The position numbers and the translations under genes were made by a program. 64,000 nucleotides of DNA from positions 1,600,001-1,664,000 of the forward strand of contig CAXXUA010000005.1 of the NCBI GenBank assembly GCA_963663765.2, read 5' to 3'. Positions 499-57,627 of the stretch are shown here, piece after piece (position 1 is the stretch's first letter; the number at the start of each line of letters is the position of its first letter). The notes under the pieces were generated by a model, which was given only the letters and a program-made list of their open reading frames with translations, made no database searches and was not told where the DNA came from. The stretch is from Candidatus Poribacteria bacterium (lineage in GTDB: Bacteria > Poribacteria > WGA-4E > WGA-3G).

Positions 499-870
499 AG
501 ATTTTACCACTAATGTGAATGTTTAGAGAGCATAATGAAGATTAGTTAATATTAATTCGGTAAAAAATACTTCTCCAACGGTAAGCGTGCTTTGTAAGCG
601 CGCTGTTTAGATTTGATGTCCCAGCGCGCTTACAAAGCACGCCTACTATTAGCGCTTTGGAAAATGTGAATATACATCGCCTATCATAGATTTTACCACT
701 AATGTGAATGTTCAGAGAGCATAATGAAAATTAGTTAATATTAATTCGGTAAAAAAATACTTCTCCAACGGTAGGCGTGCTTTGTAAGCGCGCTGTTTAG
801 ATTTGATGTGCCAGCGCGCTTACAAAGCACACCTACCATTAGAGCTTTAAAAAATGTAAATATACATCGC
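491..870. repeat. Tandem duplication (2 x ~189 bp) of cydB start, upstream region, MITE-B left end and REP hairpin pair
   Basis: CCTATCATAGATTTTACCACTAATG starts at 491 and at 680; near-identical copies with a few SNPs. Confidence 0.9.
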
Positions 871-936
871 CAAATCAAGAAATCAACGGTATGAATCATG
901 GCTAATGCCATGCACGCATTCACCCAATGGCATTCC
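870..936 (-). mobile_element. Micro-element K (composite copy)
   Basis: Reverse complement GGAATGCC...ATTCATACCGTTGATTTCTTGATTTGG. Confidence 0.7.
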
Positions 937-964
937 ACAGCTACAAAGCTTGACAGCCATTAGT

Positions 965-14241: not shown

Positions 14242-15228
14242 CTAAAATTTGTCTTCCGTTTTTGAGTAAATTGATATTAAGACGAAACAGGTTGTTTGTA
14301 AGTTTGTTGCTGTTGTCTTAAGTTCTATTGGTGTATCACTCTTGAATCCGCCATCCTTCTCTTGTGCTTTTGTAAGATATGATATTGCGATGCGACGCGT
14401 ATTGAGTGGATCAGCTGCAGCGGTAAGGCCCATAATAGCAGCCGCAGTAACCTCTGGATCACTTGGTTGTCCTTTAAACCTACCAAAACCACCATCTCTG
14501 TTTTGGAAATGTTTTATCAGCGCAACCTGTTCATCAAGATCATATTCGGGTGACAGTCCTTGAAGTGCCCATGAAGTTACATATATATCCGATTGCGTTC
14601 CACCTGGGAGATGCCAAATATTGTCAAAATTGTTCTGTTCTGCTAACCACTTAATTCCTGAGCTAATGGGTTTGAAATGTTCTTGTATAAAACCGAGTCT
14701 TTTAAACCCAACAATTGTTGCTGATGTGTAGAGTATATGTCCGGGACTTTTGCTCTTGCGTCCCCAACTCCCACTACGATTCTGTGCATTCTTGAGCCAA
14801 TACATTCCTTTTAATCTGGCTTCAGAGTCAGTTTTAGAATTCGTTAGCGCAATAAGTGCAAACGCAGTATGAGCGGTGTTGTCGTTCCAACTTCCGTTTT
14901 CACGTTGTAGGATTCTCAAATATCTGACACCCCCGCGAATGATGCGTGATCCTGTTCCCCACTCCGCATCCGTCAATGCCCAGACAGCAAGTGCTGTGAT
15001 CTCTACATCACTTTTGCCACCTGGTAATAGAGGCCAGCCCCCATCTTTGTTTTGGTGCTTCACTATAAATGCTTTCGTACTTTCTATAGTTTTATAAAGT
15101 GAAGACATTTCTGTTTTCTTTGAAGTGATCTTTTCATTCTCAGCAACTATGTTTGTAATATTGAAGCTAAAAAGGAAGATGAGTGTTTGACAACATAACA
15201 AAATGAACGTACGTTTTTGATTTCTCAT
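14242..15228 (-). CDS. Secreted prenyltransferase/squalene-cyclase-repeat protein
   Basis: Repeated QxxDGGW/F motifs; N-terminal signal-like segment. Confidence 0.7.
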   Translation of the reverse strand: MRNQKRTFILLCCQTLIFLFSFNITNIVAENEKITSKKTEMSSLYKTIESTKAFIVKHQNKDGGWPLLPGGKSDVEITALAVWALTDAEWGTGSRIIRGGVRYLRILQRENGSWNDNTAHTAFALIALTNSKTDSEARLKGMYWLKNAQNRSGSWGRKSKSPGHILYTSATIVGFKRLGFIQEHFKPISSGIKWLAEQNNFDNIWHLPGGTQSDIYVTSWALQGLSPEYDLDEQVALIKHFQNRDGGFGRFKGQPSDPEVTAAAIMGLTAAADPLNTRRIAISYLTKAQEKDGGFKSDTPIELKTTATNLQTTCFVLISIYSKTEDKF

Positions 15229-15252
15229 TATTTCACCTATGTATTGGAGTGA

Positions 15253-15417
15253 CAGGACTTACGCACCCAACGGTAGACGCGCTTTGTAAGCGGGGAATGC
15301 CAAAAGGCATTCATACCGTTGATTTCTTGATTTGGCACTGGAAACCGAAAAAATGCTGAAAATTACACCATTTTCGTCATAATTCTTCATCAAATCATGA
15401 AAACTGCGTAAGTCCTG
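15253..15417. mobile_element. MITE-E (CAGGACTTACGCA ends) with REP interrupted by micro-element K
   Basis: 13-bp TIRs; GGAGTG flanking repeat; homologous to 24911-25032. Confidence 0.8.
15293..15335 (+). mobile_element. Micro-element K (43 nt)
   Basis: GGGAATGCCAAAAGGCATTCATACCGTTGATTTCTTGATTTGG; absent from the sister MITE-E at 24911. Confidence 0.8.
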
Positions 15418-15456
15418 GGAGTGTTTTATATGCTGATGTTTTTCCATAAAAAAAGG

Positions 15457-16581
15457 TCAACTATGGGGTTCAATAACAACCTTGTAAACACCTTCATTTC
15501 CAAGCATATCAATGCCATTTTCTAATTGATTCAAGGGTAGATGGTGTGTTATAAGTTTTTGTAAAGGTGCACGTGTTCTCTGAAGAAAATCCAAAGCTGT
15601 CTGAAACTGGATTTGAGGATATGCCCACACACCACACACGTCAAGGTCTTTGTTGCATATCTGATGTGGTCTTACTTGTGTTTCTCCTGAATCCGTGTAG
15701 TGTCCAACTTCAATTACTTTTCCACCGCGTCTTACGACTTCTAATGCCTCTGAAAAAACTGCTGGTATCCCCGCACATTCAATTGAGATGTCAACACCGA
15801 CCCCGTTTGTGAGGGATTGAATCTGTTCAACCCGTTCTTCAAGAGTTGTGTTCCCAACATTTATAGCCACATCTGCTCCCATCTGTTTTGCCATATCTAA
15901 ACGGCTATCCACAACGTCGGTAGCAATGATTGTACCTGCTCCGCTATCCCGCAACACAGCAATCACGAGGAGCCCAATGGGACCACATCCTAACACAGCA
16001 ACTCGACTACCAATGCTATAACCATCACCCACCTGAGGTAATCCGGGTGCACATGCACGTTCAACTGCACGGGTCGCAACCGCAACAGGTTCTGTAAGAA
16101 CAGATATTTCCTCAGGTATATCCTCTGGTATTTTGTAGACCCAAGAGTTACCGTGAATATAGGTATATTCAGAAAACTCACCAGTTAAATATGGTGGTGT
16201 TTCGCTATTACTGAAGCCGTAAATAGTGCGTCCAGAACATAGGGTGGGCCGTCCAGGGACATGCAAACAGTAGTAACATCTTCCGCAGTTTTTTGATCCA
16301 GGTACAACGGTAATTCTGTCACCTTCTTGAATCGGTCCACCCATTACATTCATAGTTTGATTGGCATTTTTACCGATTTCTGCGACCGTGCCAACGACCT
16401 CATGTCCTGGAATGACGGGGAATCTCAGGGTAGTATGTCCCAGATACATGTGTTTATCGCTGCCACATATACCAACTTTGTCCACTTGTAACAGCAGAGA
16501 GTCTTTTGCAGGAGTCGGTTTGTTAAATTCTCGGATTTCAATATGTCCCGGTTGAAACATCACCGCAGCTTGAACTTGCAT
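15457..16581 (-). CDS. Zn-dependent alcohol dehydrogenase (MDR family)
   Basis: GICGSD, GHE, CxxCxxC and GCGPIG motifs. Confidence 0.9.
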   Translation of the reverse strand: MQVQAAVMFQPGHIEIREFNKPTPAKDSLLLQVDKVGICGSDKHMYLGHTTLRFPVIPGHEVVGTVAEIGKNANQTMNVMGGPIQEGDRITVVPGSKNCGRCYYCLHVPGRPTLCSGRTIYGFSNSETPPYLTGEFSEYTYIHGNSWVYKIPEDIPEEISVLTEPVAVATRAVERACAPGLPQVGDGYSIGSRVAVLGCGPIGLLVIAVLRDSGAGTIIATDVVDSRLDMAKQMGADVAINVGNTTLEERVEQIQSLTNGVGVDISIECAGIPAVFSEALEVVRRGGKVIEVGHYTDSGETQVRPHQICNKDLDVCGVWAYPQIQFQTALDFLQRTRAPLQKLITHHLPLNQLENGIDMLGNEGVYKVVIEPHS

Positions 16582-16611
16582 AGTTTGTAACCCTTACTTA
16601 TGTCTATATTG

Positions 16612-16767
16612 ATGACGATTAATTTGTTAATTCGGAAATCAAATATTTCTCCCCGGGTAGGTGTGTTTTGTAAGCGCGCTGTGGAGTTTTGACATACCAA
16701 TGCGCTTACAAAACACACCCACGGGGTGAGTTAGATAGAATTACCGATTCAGTTTATTAATCTTCAT
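16612..16767. mobile_element. MITE-B (ATGAAGATTAA-type ends) with intact REP doublet
   Basis: ATGACGATTAAT...TTAATCTTCAT; internal GTAGGTGTGTTTTGTAAGCGC...GCGCTTACAAAACACACCCAC. Confidence 0.75.
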
Positions 16768-16782
16768 GTATACAGACAACGT

Positions 16783-17937
16783 TTACTTTTTCCATAGTGG
16801 AATTAATATCTTTGTCAACTGTGCCAAACTTTCTAAATTATGTGCTGGAAGAAAATAGTCTACGTAAGGCAGTGCGGTACGAATCCCACGACATATCGGT
16901 TGATATGTGTCGCTTCCCAGTAATGGATTAAGCCATATTAGTTTATACGCATGCCGATGTAACATCTCCATAGATCGTTGGAGGAGTTCCGCATCGCCTC
17001 TATCCCAACCATCGCTAATGAGGATTACAACTGACCGATATGCTGAAAAAGATGAAGCGAATTGACGATAAAACGTTAATAGACTTTCACCAATTTTCGT
17101 ACCACCCGACCAATCTGGGACAATGTTCGCAACTTCATTCAATCCTGCTGCCAAACCTTTACGTTGAAGTAGTCCAGTGATATTTGTTAAATGTGTACTG
17201 AAAACTGCGACTTCTACTTCCCTTAACTCCTGCTGCATGCCGTAGATAAATTGAATTAGGAATTTGGAATAACAATCCATTGACCCACTTACATCACAGA
17301 GGAGTAGAATTCTTGTCTTTTTGATTTTTTGCTTTTTGCGTTTCAGTTCAATCGGTTCACCACCGTGTACAAGATTTATTCGCCAACTTCGTCGAAAATC
17401 AATTGTTCTCCCCTTTTTGCTGCTAACCTTTCGTCTACTTAGTTTTGTTGCTAATACCGCTGCCAATTTTGCAACAACCTGCCGTGCTGTCTCCATATCT
17501 TTTTCAGAATACTCACTAAAATCCTTTCGTTTCAGTACCTCCTCTACACTATACGCTATAGGATCGTCTTCCTGTCCCTCCTCATCTGTGTCCTCAAAAT
17601 CTGTCCATTGATCCATGATGTTTTCTTCATTTTCTGTATCATAAAGGTCTTGCAAGGCAGAGGGTTCAGGTTCATCTTCGCCGGTATCAGTTATTTGGAT
17701 TTCTGGTCTTGGATACCTCCAAAACAAATTGAAGGCAGCATCAAATTTTTCTCGATCTATTTCGTTCGCAATCAAGTTTGTTCGTGCTGTGTGATAAAAA
17801 ATATCCCGTTCATTGATGTCAATGAAATCAACGCTTTTACACCAACTTAGCTGATTAGTTGTAGTTACGTTAACACCTATCTGCCTAAGTAGTTTGCAAA
17901 AATTGTTGATCTGATGAAGAAGGGTGTGTTTAGTCAT
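16783..17937 (-). CDS. vWA-domain CoxE-like protein
   Basis: DVSGSM, WSGGT.IG, ISDGWD and WLNPL motifs. Confidence 0.9.
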   Translation of the reverse strand: MTKHTLLHQINNFCKLLRQIGVNVTTTNQLSWCKSVDFIDINERDIFYHTARTNLIANEIDREKFDAAFNLFWRYPRPEIQITDTGEDEPEPSALQDLYDTENEENIMDQWTDFEDTDEEGQEDDPIAYSVEEVLKRKDFSEYSEKDMETARQVVAKLAAVLATKLSRRKVSSKKGRTIDFRRSWRINLVHGGEPIELKRKKQKIKKTRILLLCDVSGSMDCYSKFLIQFIYGMQQELREVEVAVFSTHLTNITGLLQRKGLAAGLNEVANIVPDWSGGTKIGESLLTFYRQFASSFSAYRSVVILISDGWDRGDAELLQRSMEMLHRHAYKLIWLNPLLGSDTYQPICRGIRTALPYVDYFLPAHNLESLAQLTKILIPLWKK

Positions 17938-18850
17938 TTTCCTGTTTTTTTAGAAAAGCAATGAATGCTTCCAGTTCTTTAGAAAGCATAGGAAAAAAAT
18001 CGTTTACTCGCGTTGCATTCTCAAGCATTTTTGCATAATCCAGTTCATCTCCGTAAATATATAAGAAAACATGACGAAAACCGAGTAGTTTTTGTAGCTT
18101 GATATAAGTATCTTGTGAAATTACAGGAGCACGTATTGATGTTGGTTCTGCGATTTGTTGCAATAGGGTTTTGTGCCATTCTTCTCCTGCAGGTAAAGAT
18201 TGGTCAAACTCTTGAGCAATTCTTGCAAAAATGTTTTCCAACTGCTTATAGAAATCATATAGATATCTGGCGATTTCTATCTCTATGCTGCGTCTATATC
18301 GTTCTGGTGCATCTTGAATGTTTTGCAATGCTTGATCAATGAGTTGAACAGCACCTTTTACTTTTGTATATCCATCATTCATACGTTGTATTAATTCTTT
18401 ATGCAATGTGTATGATACTTTTCTTTTTTCAATTTTATGACATTTTCTGTAGAATCCTGCTTCACCTTTCTGTATTGGAATTACTTGGTTCTGTATGCGG
18501 TCACGAAACATTCCTTTACAATCCTCAAAACTAACCAAATCAATATTGAATTCTTGACTAAAACCGATAGTTTCGTATACAGCGCGCAAGTACTGGTCAA
18601 ACGAAAGTCCCCAAACTGCCATATCAATATCCGACCATTTTGAGAAACGATTTTGTTGTGCAAGCGACCCAAATACTGCGACCTGTGTTGCCCCAAATTC
18701 TTCGTAGAGCATTGCTGCTAACTTTTGCGCGGTTTGCCATGCACGTTGCAGTAATGCCTCATCTGCTGTCCTTTTATTAAAATGTTTCTCAAGACGTGCT
18801 CTGTTTTCTTGTATTTTTTCTGAAGATAGGTCTTTTTGTATCAAAATCAA
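17930..18850 (-). CDS. Fused minimal nucleotidyltransferase (MNT) + HepT-like HEPN protein
   Basis: FGS-x11-DID in the N-half; ENIF.RIA, WHK.LL and FRHVFLYIYG in the C-half. Confidence 0.8.
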   Translation of the reverse strand: MILIQKDLSSEKIQENRARLEKHFNKRTADEALLQRAWQTAQKLAAMLYEEFGATQVAVFGSLAQQNRFSKWSDIDMAVWGLSFDQYLRAVYETIGFSQEFNIDLVSFEDCKGMFRDRIQNQVIPIQKGEAGFYRKCHKIEKRKVSYTLHKELIQRMNDGYTKVKGAVQLIDQALQNIQDAPERYRRSIEIEIARYLYDFYKQLENIFARIAQEFDQSLPAGEEWHKTLLQQIAEPTSIRAPVISQDTYIKLQKLLGFRHVFLYIYGDELDYAKMLENATRVNDFFPMLSKELEAFIAFLKKQEND

Positions 18851-18858
18851 TCAATCCT

Positions 18859-18957
18859 TTACACCAATTTTAACTGATTAGTTGTTACGTTAACACTGAT
18901 CTGCTTAAGAAGTTTGCAAAAATCGTTGATCTGATGAAGAAGGGTGTGTTCAGTCAT
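18859..18957 (-). pseudogene. Duplicated 5' remnant of the vWA/CoxE gene (32 codons)
   Basis: MTEHTLLHQINDFCKLLKQISVNVTTNQL versus MTKHTLLHQINNFCKLLRQIGVNVTTTNQL at 17937. Confidence 0.85.
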
Positions 18958-19828
18958 TTTCCTGTTTTTTTAGGTTAGCAATTAACGTATCTAACTCATT
19001 AGAAAGTCTTTTGAGAATGATATTAAGCTGTTTTGCAATCTGCTCTGTTCTTTCGTAAAGCAATTCTTCTCCATAAATATTATTGAATACATGCCGAAAT
19101 TCTAAAAGTTCTTGTAAACGTTCAAAAGTTTCTTGAGAAATTACAGGTTGTCGTTGATTCTGTGGTTCTGCCATCTGATCCAATAAGTCTTTATGCCACC
19201 TACTTCCATCGGGTAAACGTAAGTCAACATCAAGGGCAATTCTTCTAAAGATGTTTTCCATACCTTGGTAACAATCAACAAGGTTTTTGGCAATCGTTAT
19301 TTCTATATATTCTCTGTACTCAGCAGGTGAACTCTTTATTTTCTCTAATCGTTCTTCAATTTTGGTAGCAGTTTCTGATATTTTTTTAAGTTCATCAGTA
19401 ATTCGTTGAATAAGTACCCTTCTATCCACTTCATAGATTGCTCCTTTTTCTATAGAAATCAATTGACTTTTAATTCTTTCTTGAAACAGCCTGTTACAAC
19501 TGTCAAAATCTACTAAACCCACTTTGAACAATCCACTTATATCTGAAGCGATTGACAATGCGCGAAGATATTTATCTTTTGGAATTCCCCAAACAGCAAT
19601 ATCAATATCCGAATATTTTGAGAAACGATTTTGTTGTGTAAGCGATCCAAATACTGCGACCTGTGTTGCCCCAAAATCTTCATAAAGCGTCGATGCTAAC
19701 TTGTACGCAGTTTGCCATGCCCGTTGCAGCAATACCTCATCTACCGTCCTTTTATTGAAGCGTTTCTCAATAGTCGAACGGTATTTCTGTACTTTATCTG
19801 AAGATAGGTCTTTATGTATCAAAATCAA
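18950..19828 (-). CDS. Fused MNT + HepT-like HEPN protein (paralog)
   Basis: FGS-x11-DID; RWHKDLL; FRHVFNNIYG. Confidence 0.8.
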   Translation of the reverse strand: MILIHKDLSSDKVQKYRSTIEKRFNKRTVDEVLLQRAWQTAYKLASTLYEDFGATQVAVFGSLTQQNRFSKYSDIDIAVWGIPKDKYLRALSIASDISGLFKVGLVDFDSCNRLFQERIKSQLISIEKGAIYEVDRRVLIQRITDELKKISETATKIEERLEKIKSSPAEYREYIEITIAKNLVDCYQGMENIFRRIALDVDLRLPDGSRWHKDLLDQMAEPQNQRQPVISQETFERLQELLEFRHVFNNIYGEELLYERTEQIAKQLNIILKRLSNELDTLIANLKKQEND

Positions 19829-20086
19829 TGAATTCCTTGTGTAAAAATGAAGTTAAATCAACTCTATCAAGGTTGAATAACTTCTGACTCCTATTCTCAT
19901 TTGGGTATAGTTCGTGTCGTTCAGCTACTATGTCTGTGAAGTGGAGAACAAAGACTGATAAAGACAGAAACCAAATTGCAAAATCTGGTATTCTTTCGCG
20001 TCCATCGTTAATCAAGATTGTACCACAATTCCAACGATTTCTCAAATTAAAACATGTTAGAACAACATGTGAGTTTATGTTTCGTA

Positions 20087-22030
20087 CTACGGCCAAAAGT
20101 TATACATCGGTTGTTGCGTCACAACACTGATGAGACTCCATATCCCACCCATAGTGAAATCCCCTAACATTAAACCAACAGCGAACTTCACCAGTTGCTG
20201 AGATGCGCGTGGTCCACCGATCTTTAAAACTGACCATTTCACAACCGAACTGACCAACATACAACTCCACAAATACCGCATCCCCCAATCACTGGAGACA
20301 ATAAATCCAATCGGATGGAAGGGCCACCAGAAGAAACGTGCCCGCATAAACATCAGAAGTGTTGAAAAAAGTAACCCGAATACAATACCACCAGTCGCAT
20401 AGAAATTCGGTTCGGTAGGATAGTAGAGCCATCGTTGAAGTCCGCTGAATACACGTTCTCCGAAACCTATGTTCCAACTGCTGCTGCCACTCATGTTCAA
20501 GGCACCGTAGTTGTAGTTGAGATACAGAATCACACCGAAGACCATAATAGACGCAAATGCTGAAATACCAAGCAGCGCGAAGAATAACCGCCTGGGTGCA
20601 ATAGCAGAACGTTCTGATAACTTGAAACCTTCTAACTGATGTGGCATCGGATTGCTTGTATAACTCCGATTGAACCAACGGAAAAGTGATAATGCAACAA
20701 GGTTATTTGTGCCTAACGTTCGAGTGCCAAGACTGTCAATGAGGATGTGATGATTCGGCATGTTTTCCATTGCATGCACAGGAAACCCTTGCTCCGCCCG
20801 CATCCGCGTTAACACTAACACGATGATGAAATAGATAGCAAAGAACAAAGGTATTAACCATAACGACATACCGATACGTTGAGAAAAAATGAAGAGTATT
20901 GCAAGTCCACCAACGATACCCCACAACGCATATCTATACGGAATTGGTTCGTCAGCATCTTCACCAGTGCGGTTGCGCGCAATGCGAAATACACCTCGAA
21001 AATGACGCAGATTCAACACCAGCACTGATATGAAAATACCTATGGCAGCACCAAAACACTGTCTATCAATGTATGGAAAACCGGGTAAACTGGAAAGTCC
21101 TACTGCACTTGTCATCACCAATTGTGCTTTATAGAAAAGAAAGAAAAACCAACTGGAGAAGGAAAGATCAAGCGGCATTAACAGTCCCAGCCCAATAACG
21201 AATGGGTAGTAGGACATACTGATGCCACCGATGGCATTCCAAGGTTTATCTGTAAACAGATGTCCAAAGCCTTGCCATCCTCCAATACGTTTTATCGGCA
21301 GCGAAGGAATTGTTGGATACAGGAAACTAAATCCATTCAGGATTGCGATGAAGGCTGCAATCCCAAAGCCGATCCATGTGATGCGGTGCGAGAACAACGA
21401 TTTTGTGTTGTGTGTGACCTGAAACGCAATTTGAGTAATTGGATATGCAAGTCGTTCCCGTTCTACCCACTGTTTCCGCAAGATAACGTTAATACATAGC
21501 ATTACAAGGATAAGTGCTGTGACGAACAACGTCCATGACAGTATCGGCACAATCCATGCACCGATTATTTCCATTGTTGTGAGATTGGTTTCGCCGGTGT
21601 AGTATCCAGCAAGTGCTTTTGGGTCATCCACAAGCAACCATTTCGGTAGGTAATCCCAAAAGAGTTGCCTCCATTCGTTCTCAGGGGTAGCGAACCAAAA
21701 TGAATGTCCGACAGTCGTGACGAGGATCGTCATCAAAGTGATGGAGGGAAAAGCACAAGCCGTGCTCAGCAGAATATAGATTGTGAGGAGTTCCGCATCG
21801 GAGAGTAGACTAATGCGACTGATTTTTCTGAAGGCAAGGTTAATCAGCGTGAAAGCAAAAACAACGAAGACGACATTGTAAAACGGGACAGCGTAAGTAT
21901 TAAGTGCATAACCAACAAGTCCAACTTCACCAGCGATAATCCAATAGAAATTGAACGGAATCAGCGCAAACGTTATAGCAATAACTTTCCATGTGACTCC
22001 ATGTAATTTCAGACGTTCATCTTCTTTCAT
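20087..22030 (-). CDS. Polytopic membrane protein (DUF6785/DUF6784-like, putative transporter)
   Basis: Many TM segments; LRKQW.E.ERL.YP and FWWPFHPIG motifs. Confidence 0.6.
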   Translation of the reverse strand: MKEDERLKLHGVTWKVIAITFALIPFNFYWIIAGEVGLVGYALNTYAVPFYNVVFVVFAFTLINLAFRKISRISLLSDAELLTIYILLSTACAFPSITLMTILVTTVGHSFWFATPENEWRQLFWDYLPKWLLVDDPKALAGYYTGETNLTTMEIIGAWIVPILSWTLFVTALILVMLCINVILRKQWVERERLAYPITQIAFQVTHNTKSLFSHRITWIGFGIAAFIAILNGFSFLYPTIPSLPIKRIGGWQGFGHLFTDKPWNAIGGISMSYYPFVIGLGLLMPLDLSFSSWFFFLFYKAQLVMTSAVGLSSLPGFPYIDRQCFGAAIGIFISVLVLNLRHFRGVFRIARNRTGEDADEPIPYRYALWGIVGGLAILFIFSQRIGMSLWLIPLFFAIYFIIVLVLTRMRAEQGFPVHAMENMPNHHILIDSLGTRTLGTNNLVALSLFRWFNRSYTSNPMPHQLEGFKLSERSAIAPRRLFFALLGISAFASIMVFGVILYLNYNYGALNMSGSSSWNIGFGERVFSGLQRWLYYPTEPNFYATGGIVFGLLFSTLLMFMRARFFWWPFHPIGFIVSSDWGMRYLWSCMLVSSVVKWSVLKIGGPRASQQLVKFAVGLMLGDFTMGGIWSLISVVTQQPMYNFWP

Positions 22031-22036
22031 CTGCCT

Positions 22037-22972
22037 TTAGGTATCGCTCAAAAATATAGTGAAAGCGTCAAGTTCTTTGGAAACATCTTCAAAAAGTTGG
22101 CATATTTCTTTTGCGTGCTGCTCTACTTTTTCGTAAATCAGTTCATCGCCATAGATATTGATTACTTTATACCGAAACCTTAATAAATCTGTCAGTCTAA
22201 GAAAAACGTCATTAGATATTATAGGTGGCCTTCCTGTCCGAGATTCAGCCATTTGTGTGAGTAAATCACTATGCCATCTATCTCCGCTTGGAATTTGTTT
22301 ATCTACCTCATTAGCAATTCGTTCAAATATCTTTTCAAAGCCAATGTAAATTTCAGCTAGGTCGTAGGCAATAGTCTTTTCAATATATTTTCTATGATTA
22401 TCAGCGACGATATTTATATCGTGTAATGCACTCGTAATACCTCGGACTGTTCTTTCAATTTTTGTGCGTTCATCAAAAAGACGTTGAACAAGTTTTTCCC
22501 GATTCACTACGTAATTTTCTCCTATTTCTGTGCTTGTTGAAGTGCTTTTTTTCCCAATTATATTATGAATTTCTGTTTCATTCAAATCAATTGGGATCGC
22601 TTCGTCTAAAATCCGCTGACGAAATAACCTGTTTATTGATTCAGAATCAATAATGTCAATCTTAAATTCAGTTGATAGATCTTCAGTTCCCCAAAGTGCA
22701 TCAAGGCATTTATCATAAGTGGTTCCCCAGACTACTATATCAATATCAGAGTTTTCGGTGAAACATTCTGGTGTAGTAAGAGAACCGAAAACACCAACTT
22801 TCGTTGCGCCATAGTCTTGATATAGGACAGCAGCCAAGTGATGTGCAACTTTCCATGCACGTTGTATCAATTTTCCATCTACTTGATGGCTTTCCCACTG
22901 ACGTCTAAGGTTTTCTCTGCACTTTGCAAGTTCAGCTGGAGTCATACCATGTATTGTAGTTGTTTTTTCCAT
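22037..22972 (-). CDS. Fused MNT + HepT-like HEPN protein (third, divergent paralog)
   Basis: FGS-x11-DID; RWHSDLL; FRYKVINIYG. Confidence 0.8.
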   Translation of the reverse strand: MEKTTTIHGMTPAELAKCRENLRRQWESHQVDGKLIQRAWKVAHHLAAVLYQDYGATKVGVFGSLTTPECFTENSDIDIVVWGTTYDKCLDALWGTEDLSTEFKIDIIDSESINRLFRQRILDEAIPIDLNETEIHNIIGKKSTSTSTEIGENYVVNREKLVQRLFDERTKIERTVRGITSALHDINIVADNHRKYIEKTIAYDLAEIYIGFEKIFERIANEVDKQIPSGDRWHSDLLTQMAESRTGRPPIISNDVFLRLTDLLRFRYKVINIYGDELIYEKVEQHAKEICQLFEDVSKELDAFTIFLSDT

Positions 22973-23029
22973 TTTGAAACCCCATAGTATCTGATCTAAT
23001 CCCCTAAGGTTTACTCTAATTTTATTGCA

Positions 23030-24013
23030 CTAAGGTTGAATTCCTCCAGCATAGACATCATTCAAAGCATCTTCGGGAAGCGGTTCAGGACTATTCTTTG
23101 CAAAATCCAACGCTTCATCAAGTTCGTTTGCGAGATCCGTTTCAACTGCGTCAAGTTCTTCCTGCGTTACATCTTCCTCACCAATGAGCACTTGTACAAG
23201 CCTTCGTATAGGGTCACGTTGTCGTTCCTGTTCTTGCACCTCTTCTCTGTCGCGGTATGATGTGCCAGGATCTCCAATGTGGTGTCCGCGGAACCTGTAC
23301 GTATCACAATTTAGAAGCGTAGGTCCACCCCCTTCACGTGCGCGGGAGACTGCTTCGTCTGCAGCAGCATAGACCTTCAAGACATCGTTTCCATCAACAG
23401 TGACACCCGGTATATCATAAGAAGGAGCACGGACAGCAATATCCTCTACTCGCTGATGTTCATGTTGCGGCGTTCCCATACCGAATCGGTTGTTTTCGCA
23501 CACAAAAACGACAGGTAATTCCCACACAGCAGCAAGGTTTAGTGTTTCATGGAAAACACCTTGATTTGTCGCACCATCCCCAAAAAAGGAGACCGATATC
23601 TGCTGAGTACCTCGGTACTTCGCTGAGAGTGCAGCCCCAGCTGCAAGTGGTATCCCCGCACCAACAACACCGTTAGCACCGAGAATGCCTGTCTCTTTAT
23701 CAGCAATATGCATTGAACCACCTTTACCTTTGCAGTACCCTGTGGTCCTGGCAAACAGTTCTGCCATCATGCGGTCCCTTTTTCCACCTTTTGCAATAAG
23801 ATGTCCGTGACCACGATGTGTGCTTGTAATGTAATCATCATCCTCCAAGTGCGTGCAAACACCCACAGCTGTCGCTTCTTCTCCAATATATAGATGTAAG
23901 AATCCGGGAAGTTGACCGCTTTGGTATAACTTTCCTGCAGCTTCTTCAAATTGACGTATCTCTACCATCTTGCGATACATAAAGAGCATCTGTTCTTTGT
24001 TAGGTTTTGACAT
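23030..24013 (-). CDS. TPP-dependent pyruvate/acetoin dehydrogenase E1 alpha subunit
   Basis: GFLHLYIGEEA, THRGHGH, GDGA..N TPP motif and TYRFRGH. Confidence 0.9.
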   Translation of the reverse strand: MSKPNKEQMLFMYRKMVEIRQFEEAAGKLYQSGQLPGFLHLYIGEEATAVGVCTHLEDDDYITSTHRGHGHLIAKGGKRDRMMAELFARTTGYCKGKGGSMHIADKETGILGANGVVGAGIPLAAGAALSAKYRGTQQISVSFFGDGATNQGVFHETLNLAAVWELPVVFVCENNRFGMGTPQHEHQRVEDIAVRAPSYDIPGVTVDGNDVLKVYAAADEAVSRAREGGGPTLLNCDTYRFRGHHIGDPGTSYRDREEVQEQERQRDPIRRLVQVLIGEEDVTQEELDAVETDLANELDEALDFAKNSPEPLPEDALNDVYAGGIQP

Positions 24014-24057
24014 TATACTTTCCTAAAATCCTTATGTAGATTGAAGTCTTTTCAGGC

Positions 24058-24798
24058 TTATTCACTATCAAACAATCCTTTTATATACTGTACTTCATTT
24101 TCTTTTTTAGCATCTGACTCAGGTACGATACATTCTGGTGAGTCGTTTGCAGGACGGTTAACAAAACGTGAAACCGGGTATACATCCATTTCATCACTGG
24201 TGTATGGTGTCAGAAGTGGCTGCAGTTTTTCTGATGACTGTTCATCAGGATCAAGCCACTGAGTATGGACATCTTTGGGAAGAATCACTGGCATTCTGTG
24301 GTGAATCTCCTCCAAAAAATGGTTTGCAGGACACGTGATTATAGTGCAGGATCGAAGTGGGTTTTCCATCCAGTTTGCTTTCCATTCCTCCCACAACCCC
24401 GCGAAAGCAAACGGTTCTTGCGATTTGAGGTGGATATATATAGGTTGTTTTGTCTTTTCTTCCGGTATCACTTGCCATTCATACCATCCATCCGCTAAAA
24501 CGAGACAACGTCTTCGTTTGTATGCCGATCGAAAGGAAGGTTTCTCCGACAATGTTTCTGAACGAGCATTTATCATTCTGTTCCCGATTTTCGCGTCTTT
24601 TGCCCATGATGGAATGAGTCCCCACTGGAATAAATCCATGTTTTTGGTATCCTCATTTTCTTTTGTATTTGCAATTACTGCAACATCCTGTGACGGGGCA
24701 ATATTATAACGCGGGGTCAAATCCATACGTATTTGTAAGTTACTAAATGCATCAGTTAGTCTTTCTGGATCGCTTGCGAGTGTAAATCTTCCACACAT
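24058..24798 (-). CDS. SRAP (SOS response-associated peptidase, YedK/HMCES) family
   Basis: N-terminal MCGRF, INARSE and HHRMPVIL motifs. Confidence 0.92.
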   Translation of the reverse strand: MCGRFTLASDPERLTDAFSNLQIRMDLTPRYNIAPSQDVAVIANTKENEDTKNMDLFQWGLIPSWAKDAKIGNRMINARSETLSEKPSFRSAYKRRRCLVLADGWYEWQVIPEEKTKQPIYIHLKSQEPFAFAGLWEEWKANWMENPLRSCTIITCPANHFLEEIHHRMPVILPKDVHTQWLDPDEQSSEKLQPLLTPYTSDEMDVYPVSRFVNRPANDSPECIVPESDAKKENEVQYIKGLFDSE

Positions 24799-24910
24799 AT
24801 TTATCTCCTTTCTATGACAAAAAGATTGGAAGTACTACCGTATTTTTATCAAGGAATCAAATCGTTCGGAGACCTATCTCTACTTATGAAAATGTTATCT
24901 TCATAGTACA

Positions 24911-25032
24911 CAGGACTTACGCAGTTTTCTTGATTTAATCCTGAAATATGATGAAAATGATGCAATTATCAGCGTTTTTATGGGTTTCCAGCGCGCTAAC
25001 AAAGCGCGCCTACCGTTTTTGCGTAAGTCTTG
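24911..25032. mobile_element. MITE-E with uninterrupted REP half
   Basis: CAGGACTTACGCA...TGCGTAAGTCTTG. Confidence 0.8.
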
Positions 25033-25058
25033 TTACATTTGTAATCAACCTATTAAAC

Positions 25059-25889
25059 CTATTTCGGCTGTGGTACCAGAATGTCGTCTCTCCATCTTAG
25101 ACGGAAAGATGGACGGACAAGTGCTTCTGGAGACTGAAGTGTCAACCCCCCATCTGCTGTTAAGACGATACCTGTAACAAAATCAGCTTCATCAGATGCT
25201 AAGAATAGCGCAACGTTAGCGATGTCTTCGGGTTTTCCATAACGTCCTATTGGGTAACAATCACGCGAGGCTTGATCCTCTAACGCATCTGCTGCAAGTG
25301 ATGCTTCCCCTCGTTCACCGACAATCTGTCCAGGAGCAATTGCATTCGCACGGATCCCTTCTCTACCGTAATCAAGTGCTATGCTACGCGTTAACGCATT
25401 TAACCCACCTTTTCCAGCACCGTATAATCCAAATCCAGGGTTTGTGATCGTTGCATTGACAGTAGAAATAAAAACTAAAGTACCACCACCATTCTTTACC
25501 ATTTCTGGGATACAATACTTAGCACCCAGCCAAGGACCGCCCAGTGTTACACCCAGACTCTCATTCCACTCCTCGGGTGTGAATTCAATTGCTTTCTTCG
25601 TATAGGAATGCGCGGCGTTATGTACCAGTGTCGTTATCTTACCATATTCCGATAATGCAGTTTCAACGAGTGTTCGCCAAGTCTTTTCTTCAGCGACATC
25701 ACCCATCACCGCGACCGCTTTACCACCAACTTCTTTTATACGGTCAACGGTTTCGGCAAGTTTGTTTTCACGGCGGCGCGTATTGACTACTACTTTTGCA
25801 CCTTCACATGCAAACTTGTACGCTGTCGACGCACCTATCCCACCCCATGCTGCACCCGCGATAATCGCAACTTTACCTTCTAATCTCAT
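25059..25889 (-). CDS. Short-chain dehydrogenase/reductase
   Basis: Glycine-rich GAAWGGIG, NAA, YxxxK (YGAGK) and RANAIAPG motifs. Confidence 0.9.
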   Translation of the reverse strand: MRLEGKVAIIAGAAWGGIGASTAYKFACEGAKVVVNTRRRENKLAETVDRIKEVGGKAVAVMGDVAEEKTWRTLVETALSEYGKITTLVHNAAHSYTKKAIEFTPEEWNESLGVTLGGPWLGAKYCIPEMVKNGGGTLVFISTVNATITNPGFGLYGAGKGGLNALTRSIALDYGREGIRANAIAPGQIVGERGEASLAADALEDQASRDCYPIGRYGKPEDIANVALFLASDEADFVTGIVLTADGGLTLQSPEALVRPSFRLRWRDDILVPQPK

Positions 25890-25999
25890 ATTATATCCTT
25901 TCTACCACTTATTTTTCGCATCTTAACTAACGCAAACGTTGTTTCAAAGATAATATATTATGGTTCATTTTGCATACTAATAAACACTAAGCCCGAGTA

Positions 26000-27274
26000 T
26001 TATACCTTTTTCAATTCAGATAAAGCAATAAGTTGAAAAGCTTTAGTAAAGTCTTCAATAGAATCCAAATCTCTCCCAAGTTCATTGTAAGCCAACGAGC
26101 GACCTATATAGGCATGTGAGCAATCTTCTTTCATCCGAATTGCTGTGTTGAAATCCGTTATGGCATCTTCATATAACTCAAGATTACATTTCAGCATACC
26201 CCTATTGAAATATGCATCAACAAAATCAGGTTTCAAGTCAATTGCTTCGTTAAAGTCATCAAAAGCATCGTCCCATAACTCAAGATTTACCTTAGTTAAA
26301 CCACGCTGATTGTATGCTTCCGCATTATTTGGCTGCTGCCGAATTACCTTATCTAAATCTGTGATGGCATCTTCAAAATTAGATAAATGCATATTTGCAA
26401 TGCCTCGTTCGTAGTAGGCATCTATGTTCTCAGGGTTCTTCTGGATTTCTTTATCAAATTTCTTTAATGCCCTCTTATATTTTTCAATTTCCTTTTCGTC
26501 ATCAGCAAAAATATTTTCGTCATCACCAAACATATTATTGATATTATCTGGCATAAATGGAATGACGATATTTTGATCATCTTCCGAATTGCTATCAGGA
26601 TCCGAATACATTATCAGTCCCGGAAAGTCAGAAAAATCGTCATCATCTTCATCCAAGTATTTAGAATCGGGATTTAGGTTATAGAGATTATCATACGCAG
26701 CTAAATTATCTGGATCTAAACTTAATGCCTTTTCATAGTCAGCGATTGCATCATCAATTTCATCATTTTCCTCATTTAGACATCCTCTATAGAAATATCC
26801 ATCCGCATTTTCAGGTCGCAGCCGTAATGCTTCGTTATATGCTTCAAGTGCCTCTTCAAAAAGACCTAAATCGTTTTTAATTATCCCACGGATGATGTAT
26901 GCCTCATCATAATCTGACTTAATACTGAGTGCAGTATCACAGTCTGCAAGTCCCTCTTCCTCCTCACCTATCATACCGCGAACTTCTCCACGCTTCGCAT
27001 AAGCCTGATAGTATTTTGGATTATGTTTGATTGCGTCATTAATATCTGCAATAGCATCTTCGTATTCAACTAATTCAAACTTTGATATCCCACGATGATA
27101 GTATGCTTCCGCAAAGTTAGGTTTGAGTTTAATTGCTTTATTAAAATCCGTTATTGCCTTTGCATGTTCATACTGTCCCACTTTTGTAAGTGCTTGTTTG
27201 TAGTAATATTGTGGACTTCTGGTTTTTTTGGGGTTCGCACGGCTCTTTCGCTTGTTAGTAATTTTCTTAGCCAT
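26000..27274 (-). CDS. Tetratricopeptide repeat protein with acidic central linker
   Basis: Repeated AYxxRG...AIxDxxxAI TPR units in two blocks. Confidence 0.9.
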   Translation of the reverse strand: MAKKITNKRKSRANPKKTRSPQYYYKQALTKVGQYEHAKAITDFNKAIKLKPNFAEAYYHRGISKFELVEYEDAIADINDAIKHNPKYYQAYAKRGEVRGMIGEEEEGLADCDTALSIKSDYDEAYIIRGIIKNDLGLFEEALEAYNEALRLRPENADGYFYRGCLNEENDEIDDAIADYEKALSLDPDNLAAYDNLYNLNPDSKYLDEDDDDFSDFPGLIMYSDPDSNSEDDQNIVIPFMPDNINNMFGDDENIFADDEKEIEKYKRALKKFDKEIQKNPENIDAYYERGIANMHLSNFEDAITDLDKVIRQQPNNAEAYNQRGLTKVNLELWDDAFDDFNEAIDLKPDFVDAYFNRGMLKCNLELYEDAITDFNTAIRMKEDCSHAYIGRSLAYNELGRDLDSIEDFTKAFQLIALSELKKV

Positions 27275-27343
27275 AAAAACTTGCTCCTTACTTACATTTT
27301 ACAAGTCTTAAAACTGAAATAACCAAAACTATAATAACTATCA

Positions 27344-27931
27344 CAAGGTTATTCAGTTTTCAATATATTTGATAATATTTTGCTATGTCGTTAATTTTAT
27401 GTGATACCATCTTGTCCATGTCTTTAGTGGTTCTTTCGGCAATTAATTTTAGCATAAAATAAAATTCCAATGCTGAAGAACCCAGTAGTCATCTGTTTAA
27501 GTAGTAGATCGTCAATGGAAACATATAATAAATACTTAGCAAGAAAACATATAGTCCCGTAGGGACGATATGTTTATAGAAAATGTTTTCCGCTCCAATT
27601 GAGTTCCGTAGGAACGACATAGAAAAAGAAACATCTCGTCCCTAATGAAGATTAAAAATAAATGAGGTAATTCTATCCAACCGAACCTTGTAGGCGGGGA
27701 ATGCCTAAATCGCATTCATACCCGGGGAATGCCATTTAGGCATTCCCCACCTACCGTGTGAGAAATATTTATTACCGAATTAATAAATTAATCTTCATAC
27801 GGGACTAAAGATCGATGTTCATGTTTCAATAATCTAAAATTGATGCATAAAGTTCGGTTAGGAAAATGAACCTGTGTATTAACTTTCAATACATCTCAAT
27901 ATCAGAAAATTCTTAAAACTGAATCACCCTG
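27344..27931. mobile_element. MITE-A (GGTTATTCAGTTTT ends) containing a REP cluster, MITE-B and K
   Basis: CAAGGTTATTCAGTTTT...AAAACTGAATCACCCTG; AACTATAATAAC near both flanks. Confidence 0.7.
27645..27798. mobile_element. MITE-B inserted at the TA of a GTCCCTACGGGAC REP; contains K copies at 27697-27747
   Basis: CGTCCCTA-ATGAAGATTA...TAATCTTCAT-ACGGGACT. Confidence 0.75.
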
Positions 27932-28022
27932 TAACTATAATAACATATTTTTCAATTTTATGCTATAATGTTAATACTGACAAGATGTAATAAGATATTG
28001 CTATTCGCCAATAAACCCAGAT

Positions 28023-29729: not shown

Positions 29730-29789
29730 ATTACAAAATAAAGTTCATATTATAATAACAAGACACCATATCTGATATAATATTTCGCA

Positions 29790-32101: not shown

Positions 32102-32106
32102 AGATT

Positions 32107-32970: not shown

Positions 32971-33032
32971 AGTACGTTCCTCGTTTATCTAATAGAATGA
33001 TGATTCTAAATATGTTCTTGCATACAACTGAT

Positions 33033-33062
33033 ATTATACCAACAATAAAGAAGATGTGTCAA
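33033..33062 (-). promoter_or_regulatory. Sigma70-type promoter upstream of the PhyH gene
   Basis: TTGACA-18 nt-TATAAT on the minus strand. Confidence 0.6.
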
Positions 33063-33395
33063 GTTATAGCGCACACAAGGGTGTGTAAAGTTTTTGCACA
33101 GAGGTGCCAACTTTTTCTTCTCTTTAGTCCCGTAGGGACGCAATGTTTATAGAAGACGTTATCACATCCCCTCTCTTTAGTTCCGTAGGAACGACATAGA
33201 AGGATAAACATATCGTCCCTACGGGACTAAAAAGACGTGGGGATATGTATTTCTATAAACATATCGTCCCTACGGGACTGAAGAATATGGTTAATATTAA
33301 CGAGTTGTGCTAAATAACTATATGTTGATCATTGTTTCACATAAGCATCACGTTTTGCAGGTGTCCTTCATAGTTTGAAACGATCTTCAGTCCCG

Positions 33396-33465
33396 CCAAA
33401 TGCCGTACGGGGAATGCCTTAATGGCATTCATACCGTTGATTTGGCGCATTTGGCGTTGATTTGG
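33396..33465 (+). mobile_element. Micro-element K2 with a K1 copy (33410-33445) nested in its loop
   Basis: Splits REP AGTCCCG|TAGGGACG; intact REP at 33125 and 33510. Confidence 0.8.
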
Positions 33466-33569
33466 TAGGGACGATATGTTTATAGAAAAACGGCATAGCA
33501 CATCCTCTTTAGTCCCGTAGGGACGATATGTTTATAGAAAAACGTCATAGTACATCCTCTTTAGTCCCG

Positions 33570-33603
33570 ACAAATGCCATACGCGCATTTGGCGTTGATT
33601 TGG
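33570..33603 (+). mobile_element. Micro-element K2 (34 nt)
   Basis: ACAAATGCCATACGCGCATTTGGCGTTGATTTGG splitting AGTCCCG|TAGGGACG. Confidence 0.8.
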
Positions 33604-33710
33604 TAGGGACGATATGTGTGCATTATAAACCTAATATATGTAAAAACTTTAAAAACAATGGGTTAACTGGCACAAGTCGTAATATTAACAATATTTCTGT
33701 ATATTGACAC

Positions 33711-33851
33711 CTAATGAAGTTTGACAATCAAAATCGGTAGTTGAATTCGTAGGGGTTGGGTTCCCCAACCCGTTGGTTTTTGAGTTTGCGTAGAACATGT
33801 GTGGAAACCACGCACCTACGAATACACAACTTGAACGTCAAAACTCATTAG
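33711..33851. mobile_element. MITE-H with REP cargo
   Basis: CTAATGAAGTTTGAC...GTCAAAACTCATTAG; internal GTAGGGGTTGGGTTCCCCAACCC. Confidence 0.65.
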
Positions 33852-33906
33852 GACTCTGTGTCCGCAATCTCTCATTTAATCAGTTGCGGCAGGGCACAGA
33901 GACCCG

Positions 33907-34009
33907 GGGAATGCCTAAATGGCATTCATACCGGGGAATGCCAAAAGACATTCATACCCGGGGAATGCCAAAAGGCATTCATACCGTTGATTTCTTGATT
34001 TCTTGATTT
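33907..34009 (+). mobile_element. Three concatenated K micro-elements, the last with a triple tail
   Basis: Three GGGAATGCC..CATTCATACC units then GTTGATTTCTTGATTTCTTGATTT. Confidence 0.75.
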
Positions 34010-34154
34010 CGCACTACAATGGAGAGTGGGATGTTTGTGCAAAAACTTTACACACCCCGCACACAGGACCAGGGTTATTCAGTTTTACCCATTTTACCCG
34101 TTTCCTGAGAAAATCGCGACCGGGAGGTCGCTCATACCTGCTTAAGTGTGTAAT

Positions 34155-34324
34155 TATAGTGAAATATACAATTAAGTTTACACCTCTTCTGTAGGCGGGG
34201 AATGCCAATAGGCATTCATACCGTTGATTTCGATCTCCGAATCGCGACTGAACGCCTTGATAGTCGGGAATCGGAGTTCCCTCCTACACCTGAAAGTGTA
34301 AAAATAATTCTAAAATCCACTATA
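34155..34324. mobile_element. MITE-D (TATAGTG ends, Correia/IS630-like) with REP doublet and K at 34198-34230
   Basis: TATAGTGAAATATACAATT...AATTCTAAAATCCACTATA; second copy at 54750-54954. Confidence 0.8.
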
Positions 34325-34361
34325 ATATCAGAATATCCCATTATTAACCCTAAAGTACCCC

Positions 34362-53435: not shown

Positions 53436-53767
53436 ATGAGTCTATAGTGTTGATTTACCATTGCTCTGTGATATTGTTAGAATTACATAAATAAAAATAA
53501 CTTCAGGTTTTCGTTGAAGTATTTTTAATTATCATAGCGTCTAATTTGACGATAGAATCTGACAGAATAATTTATATGCACAATCTGGATGAATGTGCTA
53601 CAACTGACCACACAATCTGGATGAAGATTAATTTATTAATCGGGTAATAAATATTTTTCAGATGGTAGGCGGGGAATGCCTAAAGAAGCATGCGCGTATG
53701 GCATGCTCCATGATTCATACCGTTGATTTGGTGGTTTGTAAGCGCGCTCTTGGGACTTGATGTGCCA

Positions 53768-54749: not shown

Positions 54750-54954
54750 TATAGTGAAATATACAATTAAGTTTACACTTTTTCTGAAGGAGGGGAATGC
54801 CAATAGGCATTCATACCGTTGATTTGGAGGAATGCCAATAGGCATTCATACCGTTAATTTCGATCTCCGAATCGCGACTGAACGCCTCAATAGTCGGGAA
54901 TCGGAGTTCCCTCCTACACCTGAAAGTGCAAAAATAATTCTAAAATCTACTATA
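54750..54954. mobile_element. MITE-D copy 2 with tandem K (54793-54860)
   Basis: Near-identical to 34155-34324. Confidence 0.8.
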
Positions 54955-57523: not shown

Positions 57524-57627
57524 GGGAATGCCAAAAGGCATTCATACCCGACGAATGCCATAGGCGCATTCGGCGTTGATTTGGGGGAATGCCAAAAGGC
57601 ATTCATACCGTTGATTTTTTGATTTGG
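57524..57627 (+). mobile_element. K1-K2-K1 micro-element concatemer inside REP GTAGGCG|TGCTTTG
   Basis: Removing it restores GTAGGCGTGCTTTGAAAGCGCGCTG (compare 771-795). Confidence 0.8.

Follow-up and report, generated by a model that had tools for sequence, protein, structure and literature searches.

The stretch of DNA analysed here, referred to as the window, comprises positions 1600001-1664000 of contig C5 (bare coordinates from 1 to 64000 refer to it) in G000, the metagenome-assembled genome of a Candidatus Poribacteria sponge symbiont with 6.35 Mb in 15 contigs and a G+C content of about 41%. It contains many copies of a very short hairpin-and-tail unit, called K, whose main hosts are repetitive extragenic palindromes (REPs). 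In the following, C2-C10 denote contigs of G000, G001-G087 related genomes, and L with three digits fetched loci and metagenome contigs. A pattern search for the core of K1, one of the two forms of K, gave eleven matches in the window, all on the plus strand (15293, 27697, 33410, 33907, 33934, 33961, 34198, 54793, 54828, 57524 and 57585), where none are expected in the shuffled window. The K units named in the original prediction, which had been made from the sequence of the window alone, are all present; those at 53672 and 870 are composite, and the unit at 870-937 lies on the minus strand, which had not been stated. The copies and their empty host sites are listed below, where an octamer is one (G/C)TTGATTT repeat of the tail and a caret marks the site of insertion.

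770..793, plus strand: empty host REP GGTAGGCGTGCTTTGTAAGCGCGC, with the target positions after GTAGGCG and after GTAAGCG both vacant (empty host site GGTAGGCGTGCTTTG at 770)
870..937, minus strand: composite K-like unit with a variant hairpin GAATCATGG.., two octamers and further nested hairpin pieces
15293..15335, plus strand: K1 with one hairpin (loop AAAA), two octamers and GG, in the 3' arm of a REP
24984..25002, minus strand: empty GTAAGCG^CGCTGG target in a sister repeat, with one mismatch
27697..27748, plus strand: tail-less K1 hairpin after GTAGGCG, then CG and a perfect palindromic copy GGGGAATGCC-ATTTA-GGCATTCCCC, then ACCTACC
33126..33139, plus strand: empty host hairpin AGTCCCGTAGGGAC, the target of K2
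33396..33465, plus strand: K2 (CCAAATGCCGTACG..CGCATTTGGCGTTGATTTGG) after GTCCCG, with a K1 (33410-33445) nested in the K2 loop after TACG
33511..33524, plus strand: second empty AGTCCCGTAGGGAC
33570..33603, plus strand: K2 with a vacant loop, between GTCCCG and TAGGGAC (K2 match at 33572)
33907..34009, plus strand: nested array in which three octamers come after three K1 hairpins, flanked by GAGACCC and CGCACTACAATGG
34198..34230, plus strand: K1 (loop AATA) with one octamer and without GG, between CTGTAGGCG and CGATCTCCGAATCGCGAC
53672..53731, plus strand: composite K after GGTAGGCG, consisting of a K1 start, an inner GCATGC hairpin with the inverted loop GCGTATG, CCATGATTCATACC, one octamer and GG, before TGGTTTGTAAGCG
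54793..54860, plus strand: two K1 head to tail (loop AATA), before CGATCTCC
57524..57627, plus strand: after GGTAGGCG, a K1 hairpin, a K2-like unit (CGACGAATGCCATAGGCGCATTCGGCGTTGATTTGG, at 57553) and a complete K1, with the outer octamer and GG at the right end, before TGCTTTGAAAGCG

The second form, K2, which had also been predicted, is thus found at 33572 and in a similar version at 57553. The empty sites that had been placed at 33125, 33510 and 771 are found at 33126, 33511 and 770. An empty target had also been placed at 24911; it exists, but its true place is 24984-25002 on the minus strand, and it matches with one mismatch. Similarly, the predicted K1 hairpin at 27697 is there but lacks the tail and is followed by the perfect palindromic copy. 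This perfect palindromic REP (GGGGAATGCC..GGCATTCCCC) was considered as the source of K, which is unlikely because it occurs at only four loci.

K1 consists of GGGAATGCC-N4/5-GGCATTCATACC, followed by (G/C)TTGATTT octamers and often by GG. The copy at 15293-15335 reads GGGAATGCC-AAAA-GGCATTCATACC-GTTGATTT-CTTGATTT-GG and is located between GTAAGCG and CACTGG. Folded as single-stranded DNA, K1 forms a 7-bp stem with a loop of four to five nucleotides and an unpaired tail, and the copy at 15293 reaches -7.2 kcal/mol (z -2.5). If up to three mismatches are allowed, G000 contains 660 K1 cores, 374 of which are perfect in all 20 fixed positions. The core is followed by GTTGATTT in 438 of the 660 cases and by CGGGGAAT, the start of the next hairpin, in 107. 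The arrays contain between one and six octamers, GG is the most frequent dinucleotide past the final octamer, and the junction nucleotides at the 3' end are variable. The loops vary freely among the copies. The stems vary as well, but in a compensatory way, so that fully paired variants such as GAATGCT/AGCATTC (n=20), GAATACC/GGTATTC (n=16) and, in other genomes, GAACGCC/GGCGTTC (n=3) are found. K2 (about 130 copies) and related units have distinct co-varying stems and a CAYASGC loop, and share the CGTTGATTTGG tail with K1. The TTGATTT motif is also present in the ends GGACTTACGCAG..TTTTCTTGATTT of a transposable element of the miniature inverted-repeat type (MITE) found in the window (24860-24960) and at many sites of the genome, where it resembles the K tail.

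In agreement with the original prediction, K has neither terminal inverted repeats nor an open reading frame (ORF). Its ends, GGGAATGCC.. and ..GTTGATTTGG, are not inverted repeats of each other, and both the terminal inverted repeats and the target duplication of a MITE are missing. In being a short imperfect palindrome of high copy number outside of genes it is of the REP type; only 37 of the 660 cores lie deep in long open frames, although such frames span 79% of the genome. However, K starts with GGGG or GGTG and has no GTAG or CGTC tag of its own. The GTAG is a property of the host REP and is absent in many K contexts, for example CATACG, GTCCCG and AATCCCG. Orientation and position of K with respect to the flanking ORFs are not fixed, and the gaps between convergent ORFs hold the fewest copies (62 of 650). 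As, in addition, no T run was found 3' of the K stem, a role as terminator was rejected. Searching the window against Rfam did not reveal any match reaching the gathering score, and the region 33300-34300 gave chance-level matches only.

The junctions of K were collected genome-wide. After tandem and nested cases had been left out and identical flanks merged, 156 distinct contexts remained in G000 and 64, from 80 loci, in other Poribacteria. As predicted, CG precedes the unit, at positions -2/-1 in 128 of the 156 contexts of G000 and in 58 of the 64 others. Because an A at position -5 is also common (123 of 156 and 42 of 64, respectively), the target motif is close to A-S-S-C-G^. Within REP hairpins, K is oriented with the GTAG strand, as had been proposed. 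The joined flanks fold better on average than mismatched pairs of flanks (-5.7 versus -4.7 kcal/mol in G000, and -4.9 versus -3.4 kcal/mol at the other loci), as would be expected if the unit inserts into small palindromes. Insertions are found mainly in GTAGGCG^TGCTTTG and GTAAGCG^CGCTGG, which are two sites of one REP, as well as in GTCCCG^TAGGGAC, which takes K2, and in the K2 loop CATACG^CGCATT. K2 itself is almost confined to one host hairpin, and this hairpin, AGTCCCGTAGGGAC, is present in 385 empty and about 80 filled copies in the genome. The MITE carrying K2 has about 130 copies, of which roughly half are filled. The K2-loop site is occupied by K1 units with three different loop types.

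If GGGAATGCC..GTTGATTTGG is excised from the main targets the exact empty sequence is obtained, with a one-base ambiguity (G) and without a duplication. For 211 of 467 single units defined in this way, the joined flanks exist as an exact empty site with neither gap nor duplication. The claim that deletion restores an intact REP without a target duplication is therefore correct for these units but not for the GTAGGCG^CGATCTCC class, whose empty paralogs match with one base changed (GTAGGAGCGATCTCC) and whose filled copies miss the terminal GG. Ungapped empty paralogs spanning at least 40 nt on each side of the site were found elsewhere for 135 of 455 arrays with a true core. Of these paralogs, 57 are at least 95% identical over at least 150 nt and nine at least 98% over at least 190 nt, and one filled/empty pair is 100% identical over 200 nt. 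The 580 K clusters fall into 343 flank groups and K is thus not part of a longer element. The copy at C5:500155 is located in a hairpin whose 40-nt flanks occur nowhere else.

K units are also inserted into K units. Across the 583 arrays, more hairpins go with more octamers (one hairpin with one octamer in 348 of 458, two with two in 85 of 109; Spearman 0.58), which indicates nesting. The two-hairpin arrays show many different loop pairs, so that a single amplified dimer cannot explain them. Self-insertion, both into K1 and into the K2 loop, had been predicted correctly, but the junction is not simply ATACCG^. It is uniformly CATACC-CG-unit-C-TTGATTT: CATACCCGGGGAAT was counted 122 times versus a single CATACCGGGGAAT, and GATTTCTTGATTT 229 times versus no GATTTGGTTGATTT. 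Compared to the ordinary unit, the nested form has 35 added bases and a G-to-C change, and besides the ordinary unit no intermediate empty form of this junction was found in G000. Head-to-tail arrays of up to about ten units fit a repeated insertion after the same CG. They do not contain spacers and are in this respect unlike CRISPR repeats. One such run of about ten K1 units with a period of 35-36 nt is located at C5:1377877-1378260 and another run of units of this kind on C6 at about 362400-362830. A different array, at C3:252615-252830, contains seven identical 27-nt hairpin units (GAATACC/GGTATTC) but only three octamers, and looks like a later tandem amplification.

At the strain level, a metagenome contig of 1194 nt, L217, matches C2:135683-136678 with 99.1% identity over 997 nt and carries one nested K1 where the matching G000 copy has none. 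The difference consists of a 35-nt gap and one base, which is the same G/C switch as in the other nested units, and in a three-way alignment L217 and the matching repeat copy of G000 do not differ over about 70 nt preceding and 40 nt following the K site. A second, more diverged host copy is adjacent in G000 and has a different K1 variant at the same position. At this locus (C2:135480-135640, L277), G000 has about 150 extra bases in the composite K hairpin and the second tandem host MITE, both of which are missing in L217. An automated comparison for K-sized gaps, based on few long alignments (eight high-scoring segment pairs with G000 and 26 among the loci reached 300 nt), did not yield any case passing the filter, which would miss L217 too. 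The region around the K at C5:500155 is not conserved in the genus, and its left flank was not found among the metagenome contigs.

K is restricted to one family of the Poribacteria. Exact cores, which were counted in all relatives, were detected in nearly the whole genus (38 of 39 other genomes) and in most of a second genus (54 of 65) but in none of seven genomes of the family's other four genera (92 of 111 in total). Outside the family, a single genome with the core was seen among the 47 sampled from the order's three remaining families. The relatives have between zero and 158 exact copies, and G000 with 374 is the richest. G016, G017, G022, G024, G001, G002 and G087 are rich in K as well. 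In a search of species-representative genomes for exact K matches, the named records among the 90 stretches listed were all Candidatus Poribacteria, plus one "uncultured bacterium". Viral contigs did not contain any K match, and carriage by phages was therefore rejected. Species with coding DNA of about 75-88% identity share K copies of 40-45 nt without a single difference. G024 has no copy of the main target REP of G000, yet it has 97 exact K cores in other REPs, including nested arrays, and K is therefore independent of any one host. Within G000 the K strand forms long regional runs of one orientation, which are common to three REP families and independent of the ORF strand. These runs flip at the minima of the cumulative GC skew on C6 (about 290 kb) and C3 (about 300 kb), which suggests a possible link between the orientation of K and the replication strand. 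The overall association is weak, the K strand being the C-rich strand in 394 versus 266 cases although K itself is G-rich, and dnaA is located on C5 at 1.28 Mb, away from the skew minima.

The constant ends in more than 200 contexts, the short target, the missing duplication and the fixed orientation, together with the stem covariation, the young copies spanning species, the nesting and the filled/empty pairs, argue for a unit that was moved as such. K behaves like one of the smallest mobile elements known, and we consider the chances about even that it represents a family of non-autonomous, site-specific hairpin elements of 33-36 nt that are moved as whole units without target duplication. 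In the mobile unit the 7-bp hairpin, whose loop is free, would be followed by the linker ATACC, an octamer GTTGATTT and in most cases GG. Its substrate would be a folded single strand, of which a trans-acting protein might recognise hairpin and tail. The whole unit would be inserted or removed with ends defined by the enzyme, in one orientation and directly 3' of the CG in the A-S-S-C-G-like motif. As a rule the target would be located in the stem or loop of another short palindrome, be it a REP, a MITE hairpin, the K2 loop, or the boundary between hairpin and tail of K itself. Repeated hits at the same CG could generate the head-to-tail arrays, and hits at the hairpin/tail boundary the nested arrays with hairpins stacked at the left and octamers at the right. 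Later slippage between repeated hairpins or octamers may have led to unequal numbers.

Several observations do not fit this easily. The target classes are not all clean: GAGACCC^CGCC requires a 34-nt unit, a 33-nt unit suits GTAGGCG^CGATCTCC only with a C in place of the A in the empty GTAGGAG, two bases are replaced in the GCGACC-TC-CCGG class, and the nested junction cannot be derived from one clean cut-and-paste insertion. Units of 33, 34, 35 and 36 nt were tried with CG or one-nucleotide duplications, with cuts at C^G or CG^, and with integration of a circle via the tail, but no single clean rule fitted the nested, GAGACCC and GTAGGAG classes jointly. Most copies lie in repeats that amplify themselves, and the number of independent K events must therefore be far below 660. 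The strain-level difference is the sole one of its kind and was found in a short-read contig at a locus with two tandem host copies in G000. In the nearest species, G016 (about 88% identity), the whole repeat clusters corresponding to 15230-15440 and 27290-27932 of the window are missing at the orthologous intergenic regions, so that this species is uninformative on K alone. Furthermore, Y1 transposases and K do not co-occur across genomes. No mover was found, neither as a gene flanked by K nor in a hairpin-gene-tail form, and the neighbours of the largest arrays are unspecific (LptF/G, PEMT, alcohol dehydrogenase, a WD40 protein and a DDE transposase). Candidates for a hairpin-gene-tail master copy were sought among the 20 cores that lack a normal follower, but these turned out to be decayed or truncated copies.

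The main and serious rival is gene conversion among the host repeats. K would have been placed by rare illegitimate events and then been spread as a passenger through the amplification and conversion of its host REPs and MITEs, with conversion perhaps favouring the longer allele or being triggered by nicking of the intact site, and a dedicated enzyme would not exist. Such a process would explain why the events are clean within families but the jumps between families untidy. The clean filled/empty pairs all belong to one host family each and have long flanking homology, while one to three bases are replaced at the junctions between families, many of which read GTAGG-CG-unit as if a crossover had happened in the shared GTAGG. 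The near restriction of K2 to one host hairpin, the missing mover, and the K strand bias, which follows that of the REP families, are in line with a passenger as well. Nevertheless we regard this explanation as unlikely, although it has to be taken seriously, because the ends of K are constant in more than 200 contexts including the unique flanks at C5:500155, the nested arrays combine many loop pairs, three K1 loop types share the K2-loop site, and K is abundant in G024, where the main host REP of G000 gave no match. In addition, K is identical across species while the host repeats and flanks differ. Identity across species, together with the covariation of the stem, the exclusion from coding frames, and the observation that K looks equally fresh in genomes with and without Y1 genes, could also be explained by purifying selection on a functional site, for example a protein-binding or a structural DNA or RNA motif, that is not mobile today. 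This is very improbable given that the copy number ranges from zero to 374 among species of one genus, that units pile up in tandem or nested form to about ten, that filled and empty alleles exist, and that K sites seem not to be conserved at orthologous positions (two loci examined). The free arrangement relative to ORFs with the poorest occupation of convergent gaps, and the missing T run and Rfam match, point in the same direction.

If K is moved as a unit, a Y1 enzyme like the REP-associated tyrosine transposases (RAYTs) would by analogy be the obvious candidate, but the genome comparisons do not support it. The original prediction had named an HUH transposase of the RAYT/TnpA type, which is a special case of the mobile-element reading: a Y1 enzyme (RAYT or IS200/IS605 TnpA) would bind the single-stranded K hairpin, cut on both sides and paste it into cut REP sites. 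G000 encodes an intact RAYT of 160 aa (C4:621595-622074, L125 1435-1914; 122 bits against NF047646, NCBIfam cut-off 80), which is located between GTAGG-tagged repeats, all of them GTAGGAG-type REPs, and is followed by a 1.4-kb tandem block of units of about 37-40 nt. A second, frameshifted RAYT fragment is cut by the end of C10 (L126 1352-1632). It is preceded by seven or more copies of CTGCAGGCGTGCTTTGTAAGCGCGC, the REP that serves as the main target of K, and a single REP of these arrays contains a K1. RAYTs flanked by GTAGG repeats indicate that the host repeats are genuine REPs. The activities of TnpA-REP in vitro, as given in passages of PMC3333891, might by analogy account for units of 33-36 nt through variable cut sites, and the missing target duplication, the fixed orientation, and the regional strand bias flipping at the two skew minima would also suit such an enzyme. 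However, no K was found to flank any Y1 or RAYT gene in G000, and K does not have the GTAG tag. Y1_Tnp was detected in 105 of 112 genomes of the family but not in four members of the genus that bear K, G024 (1 contig), G001 (4 contigs), G010 and G080, which have 97, 69, 72 and 33 exact cores, respectively. The K copies of Y1-less genomes are not more decayed (47-50% perfect cores versus 52-59% in G017 and G000). Conversely, the K-free genomes G003 and G076 encode three and 33 Y1 genes, and across 40 genomes of the genus the Spearman correlation between Y1 and K is -0.07. The skew association is also weak, with dnaA lying elsewhere, and we consider a Y1 enzyme improbable. Target-primed reverse transcription, the other mechanism that had been proposed, would copy K via RNA and extend the octamer tail by slippage of the reverse transcriptase, which would be consistent with one to six octamers and variable 3' junctions. 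It is close to refuted: a profile scan that detected the domain in control genomes did not find RVT_1 (PF00078) in G000, G024, G001 and G017, the octamer number tracks the hairpin number and is explained by nesting, and neither an Rfam family nor another sign of a transcript was seen. Only tentatively, and with considerable doubt, do we propose that the mover of K could be an enzyme not yet linked to transposition, neither of the Y1 type nor a reverse transcriptase, which would be vertically inherited in one Poribacteria family, recognise the hairpin and the 3' GTTGATTT, and by an unusual chemistry replace the target base (G to C-unit-C). If this were true, no other site-specific mobile element with a defined junction rule would be as small as K, and there would be a second case, independent of the first, of the phenomenon known from cyanobacteria.

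There, in Nostocaceae, Elhai and colleagues are said to have described in 2008 the small dispersed repeats (SDRs) SDR1-8, reportedly units of 21-27 nt, some of which form hairpins with compensatory changes. SDR5 reportedly inserts into HIP1 sites, and SDRs are said to nest in their own copies and to sit in short tandem repeats. Compared by description and not by sequence, K resembles them in being a tiny unit below the size of a MITE with a compensatory hairpin, a specific short target and self-nesting. K is different in having 33-36 instead of 21-27 nt, an octamer tail that repeats, and CG targets in REP-type hairpins, and in occurring in Poribacteria; the cyanobacterial context implied by the original prediction does not apply as the host is a poribacterium. 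K is also found inside short tandem repeats of 7-8 nt (AATCCTG or AAATCCG type), for example with AATCC(C/T)G.. flanks at C6:37075 of G000 and in AAATCCG repeats of L044 and L056, which recalls the tandem heptamers around cyanobacterial SDRs. The SDRs of Nostocaceae are cited in passages of PMC5861425 and PMC3116915. An explanation of their mechanism since 2008 did not turn up in the literature searched, nor did reports on such repeats in Poribacteria, with supplementary files not being covered.

REPs and REPINs, as characterised in passages of PMC3333891, PMC3116915 and PMC3733652, share with K the size of 20-40 nt, the high copy number in intergenic regions, the conserved part next to a co-varying stem, and the strand specificity, and REPs are not only the main hosts of K but are found in G000 together with RAYTs. 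Unlike these, K has no GTAG or CGTC tag and does not form inverted pairs, its conserved part is located 3' of the hairpin, and it neither flanks a RAYT nor co-occurs with Y1 genes across genomes. In T. roseum the GTAG-23 REP sits in CCGSSCC(n3,4)GGSSCGG palindromes, which also occur empty (a passage of PMC3733652), so that there, as in the case of K, a small palindromic repeat is regularly found inside another and empty targets are present in the genome. The passages concerned mention this in passing, give no junction rule, self-nesting or tail, and describe GTAG REPs or dimers as the inserts. The TnpA-REP of E. coli cleaves single-stranded DNA on either side of a single REP hairpin, where a dinucleotide directs the cut, and performs strand exchange, and its authors propose single-strand circles and variable cut sites (passages of PMC3333891). 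According to the same passages, the IS200/IS605 family shares with K the lack of terminal inverted repeats and of target duplications and the single orientation 3' of a short sequence, and is characterised by hairpin recognition and a link to the replication strands. K has one hairpin, however, instead of the two subterminal hairpins of that family, is about 35 nt long instead of more than 100 nt, and persists without any Y1 gene. K is best regarded as a new variant among small dispersed and REP-like repeats.

K repeats the behaviour of SDRs in an unrelated phylum and makes this type of question tractable, because it combines a sharp junction rule and a tail that records nesting with more than 100 related genomes of zero to 374 copies. 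Among these genomes there are also natural "knock-outs" that lack the enzymes one would first suspect. As K shows, not only insertion sequences (ISs) but also still smaller repeats use REP hairpins as hot targets, and layers of this kind can make up much of a symbiont's intergenic DNA.

The remaining Y1 genes of G000 belong to an IS605-like element with TnpB that is present in three intact copies. Its ends, as well as those of a 1316-bp DDE IS, are unrelated to K, and K is therefore not the end of one of these ISs. The 1316-bp IS has about twelve copies (e.g. C5:640058-641372) with 18-bp terminal inverted repeats (CAGGGTTATTTAGTTTTA) and target duplications of about 9 bp, and one copy interrupts the tnpA of an IS605-like element. 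In practice, short-read assemblies of Poribacteria are interrupted at K units. Logan contigs from four runs that cover 14501-34500 of the window are broken at every repeat cluster, and the contig joints that skip K (33393 to 33465 and 33905 to 34010) have short sides and possibly derive from paralogs. At 33700-33860 of the window, between the K clusters, GTAGGGGTTGGGTTCCCCAACCC.. and ..CACCTACG belong to a long imperfect palindrome. In the contigs of several runs 33713 is connected to 33854 by five other letters, with 140 nt being skipped, which suggests a variable segment.

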